Origin: a virus
Taxonomy: Duplodnaviria; Heunggongvirae; Uroviricota; Caudoviricetes
IMG/VR virus record: IMGVR_UViG_2529292985_000032
Strand: one strand, 5' to 3'
DNA length: 41,694 bases
The translations under genes were made by a program, and so were the position numbers. The notes beneath the pieces were generated by a model. That model did not search any database, was not told the origin of the DNA, and saw only the letters and a program-made list of their open reading frames with translations. Shown one piece after another: positions 9,128 through 35,199 of the stretch (its first letter is position 1; every line of letters starts with the position of its first letter).

Positions 9128-9150
9128 ATTTAAAGGCCGCGAAAGCGGCC
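9126..9150. terminator. Hairpin GGCCGC-GAAA-GCGGCC between convergent genes
   Basis: Perfect 6-bp stem with GAAA tetraloop; T/A-rich run only on the minus-strand side (TTTAAATTT). Confidence 0.4.
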
Positions 9151-9165
9151 TGTGGCATGTCACGC

Positions 9166-9312
9166 TCACGTTATGACAAACCTATGTACCCTGGCTACAC
9201 CAGATAATATCAAAACAACTGCAACAGCAAATTCACCATCACCAATGATACATTTACGGTTCATAACGCCAAGTGCAACAAGCGCAAACAAAACAAGAAT
9301 AAAAGCAATCAT
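9166..9312 (-). CDS. Small hydrophobic protein (48 aa, two hydrophobic segments), not in ORF track
   Basis: ATG 9312 preceded by AAGGGTGAG; translation MIAFILVLFALVALGVMNRKCIIGDGEFAVAVVLILSGVARVHRFVIT; stop at 9166-9168. Confidence 0.4.
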   Translation of the reverse strand: MIAFILVLFALVALGVMNRKCIIGDGEFAVAVVLILSGVARVHRFVIT

Positions 9313-9321
9313 TTCTCACCC

Positions 9322-11106
9322 TTATTGCGGAGTGACATCCTGCGGTCGCCACCAGTATGTCTGGTTAAACTCTTTCTTCGAACGTTGCTCCATTTTACGC
9401 AAATAGCCTGGTGAAAAATACTCCTGCATCTGGTTAAAGATCATATGATCGAGAGCCGCCTTCAAGTACCAGAGATTCGCACCTGGCATCAGCCCCTTCC
9501 CAAGCTTAACCAGATCACCACCAGTCTGCTCATTCTTCCCTTCCACAGCATTTAACGGTATGCCCTGAGCAATCTTCACTACGTCATCAACCAGACCAGC
9601 TACCGGGCCAAACATCGACGCCAGCGCGCCGCTTCCGTACCTCGTGTGATCTGACAATAAAAAGTCACCGTAAAGGCCAAGACCACCACCTTTCAGCAGA
9701 GCACCAAGCCAAAATTTAGCAGCATCTTCTCCTGTCATCTCTCGAGGATTACGACCAGACGCAAGGTCGTTAAGTTGCTGCGACAAAGCGCCAAGAATGG
9801 TCGTACTGGCAATAAACGTCGCAATATATGCCGCACGCCCACCAGCAGACGGCATACCCATAGCGCGTGACCAGTGACGCATAACCACCGAGATAGGGAA
9901 CGATTTAAACAGGAAAACACTTCTCGTTAATTCACCTTTCCATGTTCCACGCTGAATACCAGAACCGGTTATCAGTTGCTCACGTGCTCCCGGTGTAATA
10001 ACAGCCATATCAACTTCTTCAGTTACGGCACCGAGCAGTTTACGCATTGCCTCAAATTTCACCCGTTCAGGCTCACCAAGATGTTTAACTGCTAAATCAG
10101 GGATACGCATAATGCTTTCCGGTGTCAGCATCGTATTATTACCGTTCCCCCAGTCCTCCTGTTGCGCCAGCTTCCATACGCTCCAGTCTGTGTCAGTAAT
10201 CCCTTTGCTTTTCAGGATACGAAAATCAGAGTCATCGAGGCTACGAAGGTCTGGTGTCCGTGACACTACTTCTCCCAGGCTTCCCATCATAGTTACGCCA
10301 TAGGCGCGCTTGTGCGCATCTGACCATGCTGTAAGCCCACTGGCACGCATTACCGCCGTTGCCGCCCAACGAGACACAGACGGCCCCATATTATCCATCG
10401 CCCAGCGGTTAACGCTGCCAAGTAGAGATTCCATCGCCAGACCAGCTCGGCGCGCCCGCGCAAGCTCAGTACGGTTCGTTGGGTCCATAGCTTCAAGCTG
10501 GTTGCGGAATAACTGGTTCATTGGAAGGTTGGTAACCTTCGCAGACAGATACATGGTTCCAAGATCAGAGAACGATGACAGCAACGCGGATCCGAGTCTG
10601 CTGGCAACCAGCCAGTTGCGGATATTGTCAGACCATCGCGCGATGTGCGGATTCGCTACAGGCTGTGTCTTTCCGGAAATAAAGTTGTACAGATTCTCTG
10701 TGTTGTTCGCCAGCCGCTCGACTTTACCGGTTTTACTCGGGTTAGCTGTTGCCGTTTCTGCCTTAACCTGATCAAGAAGGGAGCGGAAAACATGATCGGG
10801 GTTTGGACCATATGTTTCCACCAGTGCAATATCTTTACTGATACCTTCCAGGTGACCGACCATGATTTCCCATAGAGAGCGATCGCCATAAAGTTGCTGA
10901 TATTGCAGATAGGAATCTGCATCTTTGAAATGTATCTGTCGTGATGCATTACCACGGTTAGCACGTGCGCCGGAAATTCGCATTCCGGTATCAGTAAGCT
11001 TATTCAGCCCACCAGTAGCGATCGTGTTATAAGCCTCTCCAAGAAATGCAGACAACTCGGCATCGTTCATCAGTTGTCCATCGGCTCGGATATAATATTT
11101 GCGATC
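9322..11106 (-). pseudogene. C-terminal fragment of a large internal virion protein gene split by IS2
   Basis: Track ORF 9322..11133; its first 9 codons (MSGNIGANP) lie inside the IS2 terminus; native reading frame continues from the N-fragment across the target duplication. Confidence 0.7.
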
Positions 11107-11117
11107 TGGATTTGCCC

Positions 11118-12023
11118 CTATATTTCCAGACATCTGTTATCACTTAACCCATTACAAGCCCGCTGCCGCAGATATTCCCGTGGCGAGCGATAACCCAGCG
11201 CACTATGCGGATGCCATTCGTTATAATGCTCGAACGCCTCTGCAAGGTTCTTTGCTGCCGTTAACCCGTCTGGTTTGGGCATGATACTGATGTAGTCACG
11301 CTTTATCGTTTTCACGAAGCTCTCTGCTATTCCGTTACTCTCCGGACTCCGCACCGCCGTGTTCTTCGGTTCAAGTCCCAACATCCGGGCGAACTGGCGT
11401 GTTTCATTAGCCCGGTAGCATGAACCATTATCCGTCAGCCACTCCACTGGAGACGACGGAAGATCGTTGCCGAAGCGGCGTTCCACCGCTCCCAGCATGA
11501 CGTCCTGTACTGTTTCACTGTTGAAGCCGCCGGTAGTCACCGCCCAGTGCAGTGCCTCACGATCACAGCAGTCCAGCGCGAACGTGACACGCAGTCTCTC
11601 TCCGTTATCACAGCAGAACTCGAACCCGTCAGAGCACCATCGCTGATTGCTTTCTTTCACGGCCACTCTGCCTGTATGTGCCCGTTTCGATGGTGGTACA
11701 GCAGGTTTTCGCTCAAGCAACAGCGCATTCTGGCGCATGATCCGGTAAACACGTTTGGCATTGATCGCAGGCATACCATCAAGTTCTGCCTGTCTGCGAA
11801 GCAGCGCCCATACCCGACGATAACCATACGTGGGCAGCTCTCCGATAACATGGTGTATACGGAGAAGCACATCCGTATCATCAGTGTGACGACTGCGGCG
11901 GCCATCCATCCAGTCATCGGTTCGTCTGAGAATGACGTGCAACTGCGCACGCGACACCCGGAGACAACGGCTGACTAAGCTTACTCCCCATCCCCGGGCA
12001 ATAAGGGCGCGTGCGCTATCCAC
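11118..12023 (-). CDS. insD: IS2 transposase OrfB (InsD), DDE catalytic domain; made as OrfAB fusion by -1 frameshift
   Basis: 301-aa ORF overlapping insC in the -1 frame; integrase-core-like sequence. Confidence 0.85.
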
Positions 12024-12391
12024 TTTTTTGCCCGTCCATATTCAACGGCTTCTTTGAGGAGTTCATTTTCCATCGTTTTCTTGCCGAGCAGGCGCTGGAG
12101 TTCTTTAATCTGCTTCATGGCGGCAGCAAGTTCAGAGGCAGGAACAACCTGTTCTCCGGCGGCCACAGCAGTAAGACTTCCTTCCTGGTATTGCTTACGC
12201 CAGAGAAATAACTGGCTGGCTGCTACACCATGTTGCCGGGCAACGAGGGAGACCGTCATCCCCGGTTCAAAGCTCTGCTGAACAATTGCGATCTTTTCCT
12301 GTGTGGTACGCCGTCTGCGTTTCTCCGGCCCTAAGACATCAATCATCTGTACTCCAATGACTAGTCTAAAAACTAGTATTAAGACTATCAC
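11981..12391 (-). CDS. insC: IS2 transposase OrfA (InsC)
   Basis: 136-aa HTH protein [26 protein letters not shown]... recognised as IS2 InsC. Confidence 0.9.
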
Positions 12392-12437
12392 TTATTTAAG
12401 TGATACTGGTTGTCTGGAGATTCAGGGGGCCAGTCTA

Positions 12438-13132
12438 CGATCCAGCTTACCTATAACATCGCTAACCCACTTATCCTTTGATACCGCCCCAACCTTTTCC
12501 ATAGAATGATGTTGAGGGATCCCCCAGTTTTCGAGATAGCCAATGTCCCCACCAGCATCATTAAACCGGCGGCGCAGTAGCTCTGTCACTTCTCTCCACG
12601 CCTTAGCACCTTTTCTTGCTTTAGCATTGCCAGTATTTTGCCCCCGCATTTCATATACCAGGTCACGTACGCCCGCTTCATCTTCAAACAGACCAAAAAA
12701 GCGAGGATCAACTGCTTCGAATGCCTCCTGCAATTGACTCAATGCATACTCACGGGTGGCTTTTGTTCTGGATTCAACAGAGAGGAAATTCGATTTACCG
12801 TCTGCATTAAAAGCAATAGTACGGTTAAGAGCGCCAAGTTTCCCATCAGCCCCTTGATAGCTATTGATAAATTTATCCAATCTCTGACGTGCGGCTATAG
12901 TGAGGGCCACACGACGTTTCTTTAATGCCGCTTCTCGCTGTAATTCTTCAGATGCCAATTGTGCTGCACGATATAGCCGCTCTGATTCGGAAAGTTGTCT
13001 CCACGACATCGTGTCATCACGAGCAATGGAGCGCATATTTCGATAAATGCGGTCTTCAATGTTCTGTATTTCTCGCGCCGTTAACGTGCGCTGCGCCGCC
13101 TGCTGGACCGCTTGTATACATTCCTGTCTCAT
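12438..13132 (-). pseudogene. N-terminal fragment of the IS2-split internal virion protein gene
   Basis: Track ORF 12422..13132; the last residues (LAP-stop) are IS2-derived; reconstructed intact gene would encode about 830 aa. Confidence 0.7.
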
Positions 13133-13137
13133 TTAAT

Positions 13138-14940
13138 TTAACCTCTCAAGAAACACGCCACAGCGACATCAAACAGGCTGGAATCCTGTATTGCCTGCTC
13201 ACTTTCCCTGTTCGCTTCATCCAGTACTTCACGCGCGCTGCGCGATTGTGGATTACCATCATCATCCAGCACGGTGATTATCATGTCCGGAGATTCAAGC
13301 AGCGAGTCTTCAGCTATACGCAGATCAATATCTCCTGCCGGATCTGCCATCATTTTTTGTTCTGTCTGTTGCAATATCTTACCGGGCTCAAAAGGAGCTA
13401 CTTCGTCTGGCGTCCTGACCTCTGCTGTTTTATAGAATGAAACAGCCTGAGCATTAAGTTCACTTTCTGCCTGCTGTCGCCGTGCCAGTTCTGCTCGAGC
13501 TTCAAAAAACTGACCGCCAGGCTCATGCGGTGCCAACGCGTTACGGGAAAATTCCAGGCGTTCTTGTGCCTGCCGGATTCGTTGGTCAATATCGCGAAGT
13601 CTGGCCTGTTTATCTGATCGAGCACGAGATAAAGCCTTACCGCTACCGGTTGGCTCTTCTGCAAGAATTTGTGCGCGCTGTTCAGTGAGATTTTCAATAA
13701 TTCGTTGGCTATTAGCGATTTCAGACTGGTAAACCTGTCTATCGCCACGCGGCAAAAGCTGCGCGGCCTGTTCTTCAAGCAACCGATTTTCTATAGCGCG
13801 CGCCGTTACTCCATCATCTACAGATGACAGAGCCTCATTAACTGCCTGAGACAGCAGACTCTTGCGCCCAGGAATTTCACTGAAAGATGCAGACTCAACA
13901 ATGCTGGCAACGTCTACAGGTCTCCCCTGGCTAACATCAGACATGGCTTTTCGCAGAGCCTGAATGTGCGAATTACGCGAAAGCACGTTGATCGGAACGC
14001 CGGGAGCAATATCAATTTCAGCATGATGAGCGGCATTCGCCGCCAGTGCAGCATCGATATCAACTGGTGAAAAATTTGGTGCGCTTGTAGGCTCGCCGCG
14101 AGAGTTAATAAATCTGCCGACACCACCAAACACCACCCCAAGAACAGCATCAATAGCAATTGCCTGTCGATCCAACACATCATACTGGTTAGCCATTTCG
14201 CTATAGCCACCATCACGAAGCGTTTTTGCAGTAAGCCCACGCTGTGCCATACCGAACGCAATATTTGTACCTGCGGCATAGGCAATATCTGGCGTTGCAC
14301 GTACTGCTGTTGCTGCGGCGCGTCGCACTGAACTTTCACCCGTCCGCGCAAGCTGAGCCGCCACACCTTCCGCCAGCGCACCACCAGCACGTAACCCGAG
14401 GCTCATAGGGATCAGTGTTCCGGCACCAGCAGTAATACCCTGCACTAATCCCGCTTCCTGCGCCGTCCTGAAATCAACACCCTGTGCTGTCAGCCGTTCA
14501 AACTCAGAAAAACCCTGTAGAGAAGTTACCGCCGCAGCACCTCCGACCGGACCACCGAGCGTTGTACCGACAACAGCCTGCCCGCCCATATCGAACAACC
14601 CATAAAGAACCTGCCCGGCGGTTCCGGTTGTCGCGGCATCAGGCGTCAGCCGCTTAACCTGCTGCTCTGCTAGTTTTCTCTGCTCAGCAATGTATGAAAC
14701 TGAAGTGTCATTGAGCGAGGTGTTTTCGTTAACAAACTGAGCAATCGGGGATACGATTTTATCCATCCCTGCCCATAGCAACTGATCTGGCTTTGCCACC
14801 AGCCCGGAGTACAAACCAGACAATGCCGCTCCTACAGCGTTGTCGAAAAAACCAACATCGCTGTTAAAGCCAGCTGGATTTGATGCTGCTTCGTCAAGCT
14901 GCTGATTCTGGTTTACTGGATTAAGGCCAAAGTAACTCAT
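13138..14940 (-). CDS. Large internal virion (ejection/core) protein
   Basis: 600 aa, Ala/Gly-rich, in the run of large genes between tail tubular genes and tailspike; position-based call. Confidence 0.55.
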   Translation of the reverse strand: MSYFGLNPVNQNQQLDEAASNPAGFNSDVGFFDNAVGAALSGLYSGLVAKPDQLLWAGMDKIVSPIAQFVNENTSLNDTSVSYIAEQRKLAEQQVKRLTPDAATTGTAGQVLYGLFDMGGQAVVGTTLGGPVGGAAAVTSLQGFSEFERLTAQGVDFRTAQEAGLVQGITAGAGTLIPMSLGLRAGGALAEGVAAQLARTGESSVRRAAATAVRATPDIAYAAGTNIAFGMAQRGLTAKTLRDGGYSEMANQYDVLDRQAIAIDAVLGVVFGGVGRFINSRGEPTSAPNFSPVDIDAALAANAAHHAEIDIAPGVPINVLSRNSHIQALRKAMSDVSQGRPVDVASIVESASFSEIPGRKSLLSQAVNEALSSVDDGVTARAIENRLLEEQAAQLLPRGDRQVYQSEIANSQRIIENLTEQRAQILAEEPTGSGKALSRARSDKQARLRDIDQRIRQAQERLEFSRNALAPHEPGGQFFEARAELARRQQAESELNAQAVSFYKTAEVRTPDEVAPFEPGKILQQTEQKMMADPAGDIDLRIAEDSLLESPDMIITVLDDDGNPQSRSAREVLDEANRESEQAIQDSSLFDVAVACFLRG

Positions 14941-27070: not shown

Positions 27071-27147
27071 GTGGCATTAGCTCAGTCGGACAGAGCAACC
27101 GCCTTCTAAGCGGTTGGTCGCAGGTTCGAATCCTGCATGCCACGCCA
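27071..27147 (+). tRNA. tRNA-Arg, anticodon UCU (27105-27107), decodes AGA
   Basis: 77 nt cloverleaf: acceptor GTGGCAT/ATGCCAC, D-arm GCTC/GAGC, anticodon stem ACCGC/GCGGT with loop CTTCTAA, T-arm GCAGG-TTCGAAT-CCTGC, discriminator G and encoded CCA. Confidence 0.9.
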
Positions 27148-34402: not shown

Positions 34403-35199
34403 GCTTCAGGGCTGTTCCAGTGCGGAACGTTGTTATCAGGTAATGTTGATTGCTTCTGTCTGCTAATCTGCAGCCGCCTTGCCAGCTTCTGCTCCCACTG
34501 TGCCTGATGGTATGCCTTACCCTCAGCCATCCAGTAAATTCTGAACTCTGCAAGTTCCTGTGCCGTTGGCAGACTGTCCAGGTAGATCCCCTGCAATGAG
34601 CTTTTCCGAAGAAAGTCATCTGATGGCTGCCATTGTTCATGCATGACAAATTTGCCTAATTGCCCTGGCCCACCAGGAGGAACAAAGTTATTCATCACGG
34701 CGTTGTTTGCGCCGGGGTCATGAGGCACAGAATTCCCGTTTTTTGTCCTGCTCTCCCTCTCTTGGTTAAATGACTGGTTATATGACTGGTTCTGGATCCC
34801 GTTTTTGGGATCATTCAACATCCCGTTTTTGGGATCATTCAACATCCCGTTTTTGGTTATATTACCGTTTTCGGGAACATTACCGTTTTCGGGTTCATTC
34901 CCCCCTTCCCGGTTGCCTTTAATGTTCCCGTTTTTGGTTATATTAAGAGAGAAAACCCGCACTCTTTTCGTCGCTCCCTTTCTCTCTCCGGTATCTGAAA
35001 TAAGCCCCATTTTCATGAGCGATATAAGCCCGGCCTGCACGGTTTTTTTATTCAGGCAAGTGTCTTTAACGAGGCGTTCTATGCTGGGGTAGCAGAGGTT
35101 ATATTCATCGGCTCTGTCAGCCATCGAGAGCAGTATGAGCTTTAATGATGAGCTACCTGGATCTGTCTCCCAGGCCCAATCTGTTGCATGTCTGCTCAT
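34384..35199 (-). CDS. Lambda O-like replication initiator with internal iteron-encoded repeat linker
   Basis: 271 aa; N-terminal winged-helix-like region, central NGN/KNG peptide repeats encoded by DNA iterons, followed by P-like gene. Confidence 0.7.
   Translation of the reverse strand: MSRHATDWAWETDPGSSSLKLILLSMADRADEYNLCYPSIERLVKDTCLNKKTVQAGLISLMKMGLISDTGERKGATKRVRVFSLNITKNGNIKGNREGGNEPENGNVPENGNITKNGMLNDPKNGMLNDPKNGIQNQSYNQSFNQERESRTKNGNSVPHDPGANNAVMNNFVPPGGPGQLGKFVMHEQWQPSDDFLRKSSLQGIYLDSLPTAQELAEFRIYWMAEGKAYHQAQWEQKLARRLQISRQKQSTLPDNNVPHWNSPEAWEDFL
34797..34945. repeat. Iteron array (probable replication origin) inside the O-like gene
   Basis: Two perfect 24-bp tandem units TCCCGTTTTTGGGATCATTCAACA (34797-34844), further TCCCGTTTTTGG copies at 34845 and 34926, two 18-bp TTACCGTTTTCGGG-type units at 34862-34897. 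Confidence 0.7.

Follow-up and report, generated by a model that had tools for sequence, protein, structure and literature searches.

IS2 and the gene it interrupts

We analysed a window of 41,694 nucleotides (the whole stretch of DNA in IMG/VR virus record IMGVR_UViG_2529292985_000032), which holds a Uetakevirus (phiV10-like) prophage adjoining yfgI in a Shigella/E. coli chromosome. A complete, 1331-bp copy of IS2 lies on the minus strand of this prophage at positions 11107–12437, with its IRL end at 12437 and its IRR end at 11107, and its transposase strand runs in the same direction as the phage gene that it interrupts. The element was identified by its terminal inverted repeats and by its 99.9% identity, over 100% of the length, to E. 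coli copies annotated as 'IS3-like element IS2 family transposase'. The repeats are imperfect (11115–11147 and 12396–12428, 33 nt, 79% complementary), and a 1-nt indel shifts their outermost bases out of register. Both transposition genes are open in translation: orfA (11981–12346, minus strand) encodes an InsC-type protein of 121 aa with an HTH_Tnp_1 domain, and orfB (11118–12023, minus strand) an InsD-type protein of 301 aa with the rve integrase core (rve and rve_3), as also found by gene calling and Pfam search in an identical locus on an independent complete chromosome (L003). The overlap of the two genes contains a single AAAAAAG slippery site for -1 frameshifting, and the copy is intact and apparently active. 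In length, ends, A6G frameshift site and 5-bp duplication, the element agrees with the gene-inactivating insertions made by IS2, which belongs to the IS2 group of the IS3 family, in E. coli and Shigella; the mechanism is identical, and the target alone differs.

On each side, IS2 is bordered by a copy of CGATC, at 11102–11106 next to IRR and at 12438–12442 next to IRL, a match between flanks that would arise by chance about once in 1024 cases. In silico removal of 11107–12442, that is, of IS2 and one copy of the duplication, yields a minus-strand ORF of 2475 nt (13132..9322) with no internal stop, into which IS2 had been inserted after codon 230. The original prediction had located IS2 and the intact duplication exactly to the base and was right that the flanking ORFs join in frame into one gene; its estimate of about 830 codons is corrected here to 824 codons plus the stop. 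Across 600 nt, the restored junction shows 100.0% identity to alleles without an interruption from at least 5 complete E. coli genomes. The locus is present in 317 E. coli genomes, of which 309 match 80% or more of this junction in one piece. These comparisons support a simple transposition, as had been proposed, that neither deleted nor rearranged anything at the target.

The interrupted gene survives as two pieces on the minus strand. The 5' fragment (12422–13132) consists of 230 native codons (13132..12443) and 6 further codons that read through CGATC into the IRL of IS2, ending in GKLDRRLAP and a stop, whereas the 3' fragment (9322–11106) retains codons 231–824 and the native stop. Immediately upstream, at 13138–14940 on the minus strand, lies an intact gene of 600 aa, the ortholog of epsilon15 gp16 (PhiV10p19 in phiV10). 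Downstream, a 48-aa gene homologous to PhiV10p21 (9166–9312, minus strand) is the sole gene exposed to polarity from IS2; beyond it, a terminator-like hairpin (9134–9151, minus strand) marks the end of the late structural operon, at the same place where a terminator is annotated in phiV10.

The interrupted gene as a probable internal core gene

The restored protein is 99.0–99.3% identical over all 824 aa to PhiV10p20 of Escherichia phage phiV10 and to the same protein of related phages, aligns end to end with gp17 of Salmonella phage epsilon15 (28% identity, E 6e-107), and matches PHROG 684, 'virion structural protein', across residues 1–824 (1279 bits). Pfam and NCBIfam searches with the restored protein returned no match, and comparison of its family profile with T7 gp16 by hhalign was not significant (probability 4%, E 0.01 for a single comparison). 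Genes of 201, 823, 154, 179, 837, 600 and 824 aa follow one another in the window in an order that parallels T7 gp11, 12, 13, 14, 15 and 16. The 179-aa product matches Pfam T7_gp14 at 33 bits (cut-off 27), and the split gene, preceded by genes like gp14 and gp15, lies where T7 has gp16. The block corresponds to the gp14-gp15-gp16 ejection block of T7, likewise preceded by gp11-, gp12- and gp13-like genes. The two systems differ in that two genes (600 and 824 aa) take the place of gp16 here and in that the lytic transglycosylase annotation in epsilon15 falls on the gp15 ortholog. The protein sizes of 229, 499 and 708 aa listed for epsilon15 gp11, gp12 and gp13 (PMC8954989, Table 1) were set aside; the epsilon15 record itself contains genes of 605, 2477 and 464 nt.

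Relatives of the split gene and structural modelling extend this comparison. In one homolog of 2126 aa (P0141), the N-terminus of the gp16 ortholog (E 2e-27) is fused to the split-gene family at the C-terminus, and another giant fused homolog of the family (P0193) carries an ART-PolyVal domain. The AF2 model of the restored protein (pLDDT 87.3, pTM 0.88) is all-helical, and the C-terminal segments of the protein are moderately hydrophobic. In BFVD it matched predicted structures that bear the names internal virion protein, internal virion protein D or internal core protein, among them one from Vibrio phage VP2 (E 2.7e-33, TMq 0.78) and others from RSB3, JG068, PSTRCR_120 and Ab05 with E values from 1.6e-8 to 2.4e-5 and a probability of 1.0. 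Searching solved structures, core proteins included, with the AF2 model produced no match. Colinearity with T7 genes 11–16, the gp16-gp17 fusions and the matches of the predicted fold, taken together, indicate that gp16 and gp17 of epsilon15 jointly fill the role of T7 gp16 (internal virion protein D). Accordingly, the description of the split gene as an internal-virion gene is reasonably supported by its orthology to epsilon15 gp17, the T7-like gene order, the fold of the models and a review that assigns the internal core of epsilon15 to gp17 (PMC5850374), although it falls short of proof, as the model matched no solved structure. The 824-aa product is most likely a part of the internal core that is ejected to serve as a conduit for DNA across the cell envelope. 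This assignment is of modest value for annotation, given that these genes are still labelled 'hypothetical' in Uetakevirus genomes.

The same insertion could instead have split a gene for a distal part of the tail tube or tail hub, belonging to the adsorption apparatus, with particles that would be non-infectious all the same; we consider this improbable, though deserving of some weight. Guichard and colleagues (World J Virol, 2013) reportedly proposed gp15 and gp17 of epsilon15 as the tail tube and not the core. Their genetic work on nonsense mutants of epsilon15 is summarised in PMC12391199 as placing gp15 and gp17/16 in the tail packaging/injection device, and the absence of a match among solved core-protein structures fits a tail assignment as well. 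Against it, tail tubular genes resembling T7 gp11 and gp12 (the 201- and 823-aa genes) are already present upstream, the split gene follows a member of the T7_gp14 family, the predicted fold resembles models annotated as internal virion protein D, homologs are fused into giant proteins of the polyvalent type, and the review cited above places gp17 in the core. Since ejected core proteins themselves assemble into a tube, the two views of gp17 may in fact be compatible.

Consequences of the split and state of the prophage

IS2 transposed between codons 230 and 231 of the epsilon15-gp17/PhiV10p20 ortholog, duplicating CGATC, and the 824-aa gene now consists of an N-terminal stub of 236 aa ending inside IS2 and a promoter-distal remainder of 594 codons that lacks a proper start. 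The break divides the conserved residues of the protein, leaving C5, N191, G194, L200 and P206 in the stub and R232, Y235 and G240 in the remainder. Deprived of the whole protein, the prophage would be expected to maintain lysogeny and could still be induced and lyse its host, but would not produce infectious particles. Loss of infectivity through the splitting of a virion gene by IS2 can be soundly inferred, and the complete explanation, in which an internal-core gene is split and the prophage is left inducible but non-infectious, appears to us very probable.

On a rival reading, the split gene remains functional and the prophage infectious. The 236-aa stub might reassemble with a C-terminal product started either at an in-frame ATG within the IRR of IS2 (11133), which would place MSGNIGANP ahead of the 3' fragment, or at an internal Met. 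This finds some encouragement in family members of 628–671 aa, which start near query residue 184–205 and suggest a separable N-terminal module, and in related phages that split this protein or fuse it with its neighbour. The actual break, at residue 230, lies 25–45 residues beyond that natural boundary, in a confidently folded stretch (pLDDT 92–96 over residues 211–240), and parts the invariant or near-invariant N191, G194, L200 and P206 from R232, Y235 and G240. Moreover, no Shine-Dalgarno sequence is evident in the sequence upstream of the IS2 ATG, and 1.3 kb of IS2 separates the stub from the remainder. The ATG and the short homologs give synthesis of a C-terminal product from the split gene a low probability, and reassembly into an infectious prophage is very unlikely. 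A related proposal holds that, because fused forms exist, gp16 and gp17 of the epsilon15 type are a naturally split version of a giant T7-gp16 or 'polyvalent' ejection protein that tolerates being in pieces, and that the IS2-split allele, as the stub and a product begun at the IS2-borne ATG, could consequently still assemble virions and leave the prophage infectious; to this we attach an equally slight probability. A weaker version of the proposal is that IS2 favours the 5' third of the split gene as a target. An origin of this IS2 copy in faulty assembly, through collapse or misplacement of a repeat, is scarcely credible. Such genomes do contain many copies of IS2 (in E. coli, a median of 4 places per genome and up to 41), and two short-read contigs (L004 and L005) end inside it. 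Nevertheless, the independent complete chromosome (L003) reproduces the two junctions exactly, CGATC being present at each, independent short-read assemblies also contain the upstream one, and a misassembly would not generate a perfect target duplication together with restoration of the reading frame.

By blastn, the prophage is 96–98% identical to phiV10 over ~28 kb in conserved order, and the structural, lysis, integration, immunity and replication modules of the two are colinear, with protein genes of full length. They differ in part of the early region, in the tailspike, of which only the N-terminal 222 aa are shared, and in the replacement of the phiV10 oac gene by three acyltransferase/esterase genes. 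The yfgI side of the integration site is inside the window (328–867), the window ends at the int start codon, with the guaA side beyond it, and the nearest relative of the prophage is integrated between guaA and yfgI. Apart from its lesions, the prophage shares 99.6–99.8% identity with an E. coli prophage that has no such interruption.

The original prediction also held that immunity, conversion and lysis genes had been left intact. The immunity and lysis genes are indeed full length, as are the integrase gene and every other virion gene. The conversion module is not: of the three O-antigen-modification genes located next to the tailspike gene, two have become pseudogenes in the window, the GDSL esterase gene having suffered an 11-bp deletion and one acyltransferase gene a nonsense mutation and a frameshift; a TGG-to-TGA change is found at 5657–5659. 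Counting the IS2 insertion, this prophage has at least three lesions that inactivate genes, and the case cautions against describing the remainder as intact when two conversion genes are pseudogenes. Two further candidate defects were rejected: an apparent RecE/RecT 'frameshift' relative to phiV10 reflects two separate genes, as in the prophage of E. coli 154, and what looked like a split in the PhiV10p04 homolog lies across a tRNA-Arg gene. Decayed Shigella prophages offer a parallel, with IS insertion, nonsense mutations and small deletions similarly scattered while the repressor, integrase and lysis genes stay open, but decay here is at an early stage by comparison, with only three lesions over about 40 kb.

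Spread and age of the insertion

The 236-aa hybrid ORF formed by the 5' fragment and IS2 serves as a marker for this particular event. Exact look-up of the hybrid protein identified identical IS2 junctions on at least 18 public contigs, including the complete Shigella dysenteriae chromosome CP026840.1 and contigs from short reads, whereas an exact-junction scan of GTDB species-representative genomes gave no match. The presence of the same insertion on these contigs implies that it predates the divergence, or the resequencing, of the isolates concerned, and it is inherited within a Shigella dysenteriae-related lineage. The proposed recency of the transposition consequently holds in a relative sense: the flanks of IS2 are without decay, but the insertion is common to all of these contigs.

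A literature search found no description of this insertion. Disabling of a prophage gene by IS2 is nonetheless an ordinary and already known kind of event, and the insertion itself is already in public Shigella genomes; its general value is small, consisting of a precise junction marker for the Shigella dysenteriae-related lineage and a record of how one prophage was disabled.

Two other E. coli genomes seemed at first to carry IS2 in the same gene. FDAARGOS_1301 was rejected as such a case, as its IS2 lies downstream of an intact gene. A second, independent insertion in the gene was found in E. coli MFDS1019527 (L002), 228 bp away from the one described here, in the same orientation and with the duplication CGTAC.

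The IS2 insertion and the gene that it interrupts

The element at 11107-12437 is exactly 1331 bp long and, from end to end, 99.9% identical to E. coli sequences labelled 'IS3-like element IS2 family transposase'. IS2 is present in 4854 of 5426 complete E. coli genomes, the median genome having it at 4 sites. Its terminal inverted repeats are imperfect (11115-11147 against 12396-12428, 79% complementary over the gapless part), orfA (11981-12346, minus strand, 121 aa) and orfB (11118-12023, minus strand, 301 aa) both translate as open frames, and the only AAAAAAG slippery site lies within the orfA/orfB overlap; given these features, the copy looks transposition-competent. Copies of the target duplication, CGATC, abut both ends (11102-11106 and 12438-12442). 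When IS2 and one CGATC were excised in silico, the flanking ORFs fused into a single minus-strand frame of 2475 nt and 824 codons with zero internal stops, the insertion point falling after codon 230. The original prediction thus placed the element and its 5-bp duplication correctly and rightly proposed a single restored gene, slightly overstating its size at about 830 codons. The restored 600-nt junction is 100.0% identical to uninterrupted alleles of several E. coli genomes. The locus is present in 317 complete E. coli genomes, and in 309 of these a single piece covers at least 80% of the restored junction. Length, ends, ORFs and the 5-bp duplication are all canonical, making this a textbook case of IS2 entering a structural gene in a known type of prophage.

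Across its full 824 residues the restored protein shares 99.0–99.3% identity with PhiV10p20 and the equivalent proteins of phiV10-group phages, and its match to PHROG 684 ('virion structural protein') also spans the entire length. P0001, a cluster representative that is 96% identical to it, aligns end to end with epsilon15 gp17 (28% identity, E 6e-107). The family comprises 5136 clusters at 50% identity among 1.84 billion representatives; searches of Pfam and NCBIfam with the restored protein matched no model.

A separate IS2 lies in the same gene in one complete E. coli genome, MFDS1019527 (NZ_CP169309.1; 22014-23344 of locus L002). It is oriented identically, is flanked by the duplication CGTAC and lies 228 bp further towards the start of the gene. 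A 2.5-kb gene in a 39-kb prophage could be hit twice by chance, and we therefore do not claim a hot spot. FDAARGOS_1301 was rejected as a second split case because its IS2 lies downstream of an intact gene.

Ejection protein or tail tube

The genes upstream encode, in order, proteins of 201, 823, 154, 179, 837 and 600 aa, followed by the interrupted 824-aa gene, an arrangement that parallels T7 gp11 (196 aa), gp12 (794), gp13 (138), gp14 (196), gp15 (747) and gp16 (1318); the 179-aa protein scores above the Pfam T7_gp14 threshold. In P0141, a homolog of 2126 aa, residues 1–231 align with the N-terminal end of the 600-aa neighbour (13138..14940, minus strand; E 2e-27) and the last ~820 match the family of the interrupted gene, and the fused homolog P0193 (2913 aa) carries an ART-PolyVal ADP-ribosyltransferase domain of the 'polyvalent protein' type. 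These natural fusions imply that the 600-aa and 824-aa proteins behave as one unit in the gp16 position. The sequences suggest that epsilon15 gp16 and gp17 represent a polyvalent ejected protein divided between two genes; their joint correspondence to the internal virion protein in the T7 gp16 position is a mildly useful by-product of this work. Giant proteins of 1700–2900 aa with the interrupted family as C-terminal module were seen in P0141, P0142, P0147, P0193 and P0238.

An AlphaFold2 model of the restored protein, built from an alignment of 66 diverse homologs, is all-helical and confident (pLDDT 87.3, pTM 0.88). Among predicted viral structures it matches a Vibrio phage VP2 'internal virion protein' (E 2.7e-33, TMq 0.78), as well as many models from T7-like, phiKMV-like and other phages that bear the names 'internal virion protein D', 'internal core protein' or 'large polyvalent protein associated domain' (E 1.6e-8 to 2.4e-5, probability 1.0, TMq 0.43–0.52).

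The rival reading makes the restored protein a component of the tail tube, a role that Guichard et al. in 2013 reportedly proposed from epsilon15 genetics. That study, as cited in PMC12391199, assigned gp15, gp16 and gp17 to the tail injection device, and alignment of the family profile to T7 gp16 with hhalign gave no significant match, which also speaks against a firm placement in the gp16 class. On the other side stand the gene order, the natural fusions, the fold matches and a review (PMC5850374) that names gp17, after Jiang et al. 2006, as what makes up the internal core of epsilon15. The best-supported reading, which we consider probable, is that the restored protein is an internal-virion (ejection) protein of the T7 gp16 class; the original assignment to an internal-virion gene is upheld to that degree. 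Loss of the protein has equal consequence under either role.

For epsilon15, Table 1 of a review on ejection proteins (PMC8954989) gives gp11 (229 aa), gp12 (499 aa) and gp13 (708 aa) as gp14-, gp15- and gp16-like, with sizes that disagree with the epsilon15 record (about 201, 825 and 154 aa, respectively); the entry seems to describe another phage.

Consequences and distribution of the split allele

The 5' piece (12422-13132, minus strand) is a 236-aa ORF in which 230 native residues are followed by six that the duplicated target and the IS2 IRL encode, and the 3' piece, codons 231–824, is without the native start. An in-frame ATG in the IS2 IRR at 11133 would add MSGNIGANP ahead of the 3' piece, with no Shine-Dalgarno evident before it in the sequence. 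Reassembly of the pieces is unlikely, since the break falls in a confidently folded region (pLDDT 92–96 around residues 211–240 of the AlphaFold2 model) and parts the invariant or near-invariant N191, G194, L200 and P206 from R232, Y235 and G240. We keep a small probability for residual function because some homologs, of 628–671 aa, begin near residue 184–205. The interrupted gene is the last but one of the late operon, with nothing downstream but a 48-aa gene (9166-9312, minus strand) and a terminator-like hairpin (9151-9134, minus strand), so polarity should be of little consequence.

All remaining virion genes are full length and 98–100% identical to functional relatives, as are the two holins, endolysin, Rz, Rz1, integrase, AlpA-type regulator, repressor, RecE-like, RecT and replication genes, in agreement with the expectation that immunity and lysis genes are intact. 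The split prophage would stay maintained, inducible and able to lyse the cell, and would yield no infectious particles, which is a reasonable expectation.

The exact 236-aa hybrid ORF occurs on at least 18 public contigs, and exact matches to both junctions (34- and 35-mers) occur in CP026840.1, a complete chromosome from assembly GCF_002950155.1, which is listed as Shigella dysenteriae (PMC12679885). Two independent assemblies likewise carry the exact upstream junction, on contigs ending inside or at IS2. Within 1.3 kb, a 1-nt deletion and one GGGAG unit (aligned as GGGGA) separate the window from CP026840.1, which is therefore not the same sequence. The insertion would thus predate the split between the isolates sharing it, and its description as recent holds only in that neither fragment has decayed since; identical junctions elsewhere make it lineage-shared. 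The allele is already in public assemblies, and the event is of an ordinary, known kind. The lineage is Shigella-related, and Shigella is IS-rich and prone to pseudogene formation.

Prophage layout and the conversion module

The window is a reverse-oriented phiV10-like prophage of the genus Uetakevirus, in which the host gene yfgI (328-867) is followed by the lysis cassette (about 1090-2890), the O-antigen-modification module (3200-6300), the tailspike gene (6426-8675, minus strand, 749 aa), the late structural operon (9134-29940), the early, repressor and recombination genes and the integrase, whose start codon coincides with the final base. The closest uninterrupted relative found is a prophage of E. 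coli O22:H8 strain 154, which is flanked by guaA and yfgI and is 99.6–99.8% identical over most of its length.

Judged against this reference, the conversion genes are not all intact, contrary to the original prediction. In the O-antigen-modification module, the GDSL/SGNH esterase pseudogene (3221-3902, plus strand) has an 11-bp deletion after 3632, also present in CP026840.1, and ends at 143 aa against 231 aa in strain 154. An Acyl_transf_3 acyltransferase (5204-6273, plus strand) reads 151 + 139 aa against 339 aa, broken by TGG to TGA at 5657-5659, in common with CP026840.1, and, in the window but not in CP026840.1, by the loss of 1 nt from a T-run near 6069. The third gene, an acyltransferase of 316 aa (3942-4892, minus strand), spans the whole Acyl_transf_3 profile and looks intact; its equivalent in strain 154 is truncated. 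A perfect (GGGAG) x 5.8 repeat (6228-6256) is located at the 3' end of this disrupted gene, ahead of the tailspike gene, with one unit fewer in CP026840.1 and three fewer in strain 154. The disrupted gene is the acyltransferase at 5204-6273; the tract looks slippage-prone and is possibly a phase-variation switch for the acyltransferase.

Similarity between the tailspike and its phiV10 counterpart is confined to the N-terminal 222 residues, and a weak sub-threshold Lipase_GDSL_2 match at residues 288–440 (E 6.6e-4) hints at a receptor-destroying domain of esterase (deacetylase) type. Between the terminase and portal genes, at 27071-27147 (plus strand), the prophage carries a tRNA-Arg gene (anticodon TCT); an apparent frameshift in a PhiV10p04 homolog was rejected because the region overlaps this tRNA. 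The DnaT-like replication gene, 24 nt longer than in strain 154, contains perfect 24-bp repeats (x 2.5) adjoining 12-bp repeats (x 2.4) at 34763-34856, by their pattern an iteron-like origin arrangement. At 37140-38896 (plus strand), two overlapping genes encode the RecE-like nuclease and RecT, in the window as in strain 154, whereas phiV10 has one fused 586-aa RecE-RecT protein annotated.
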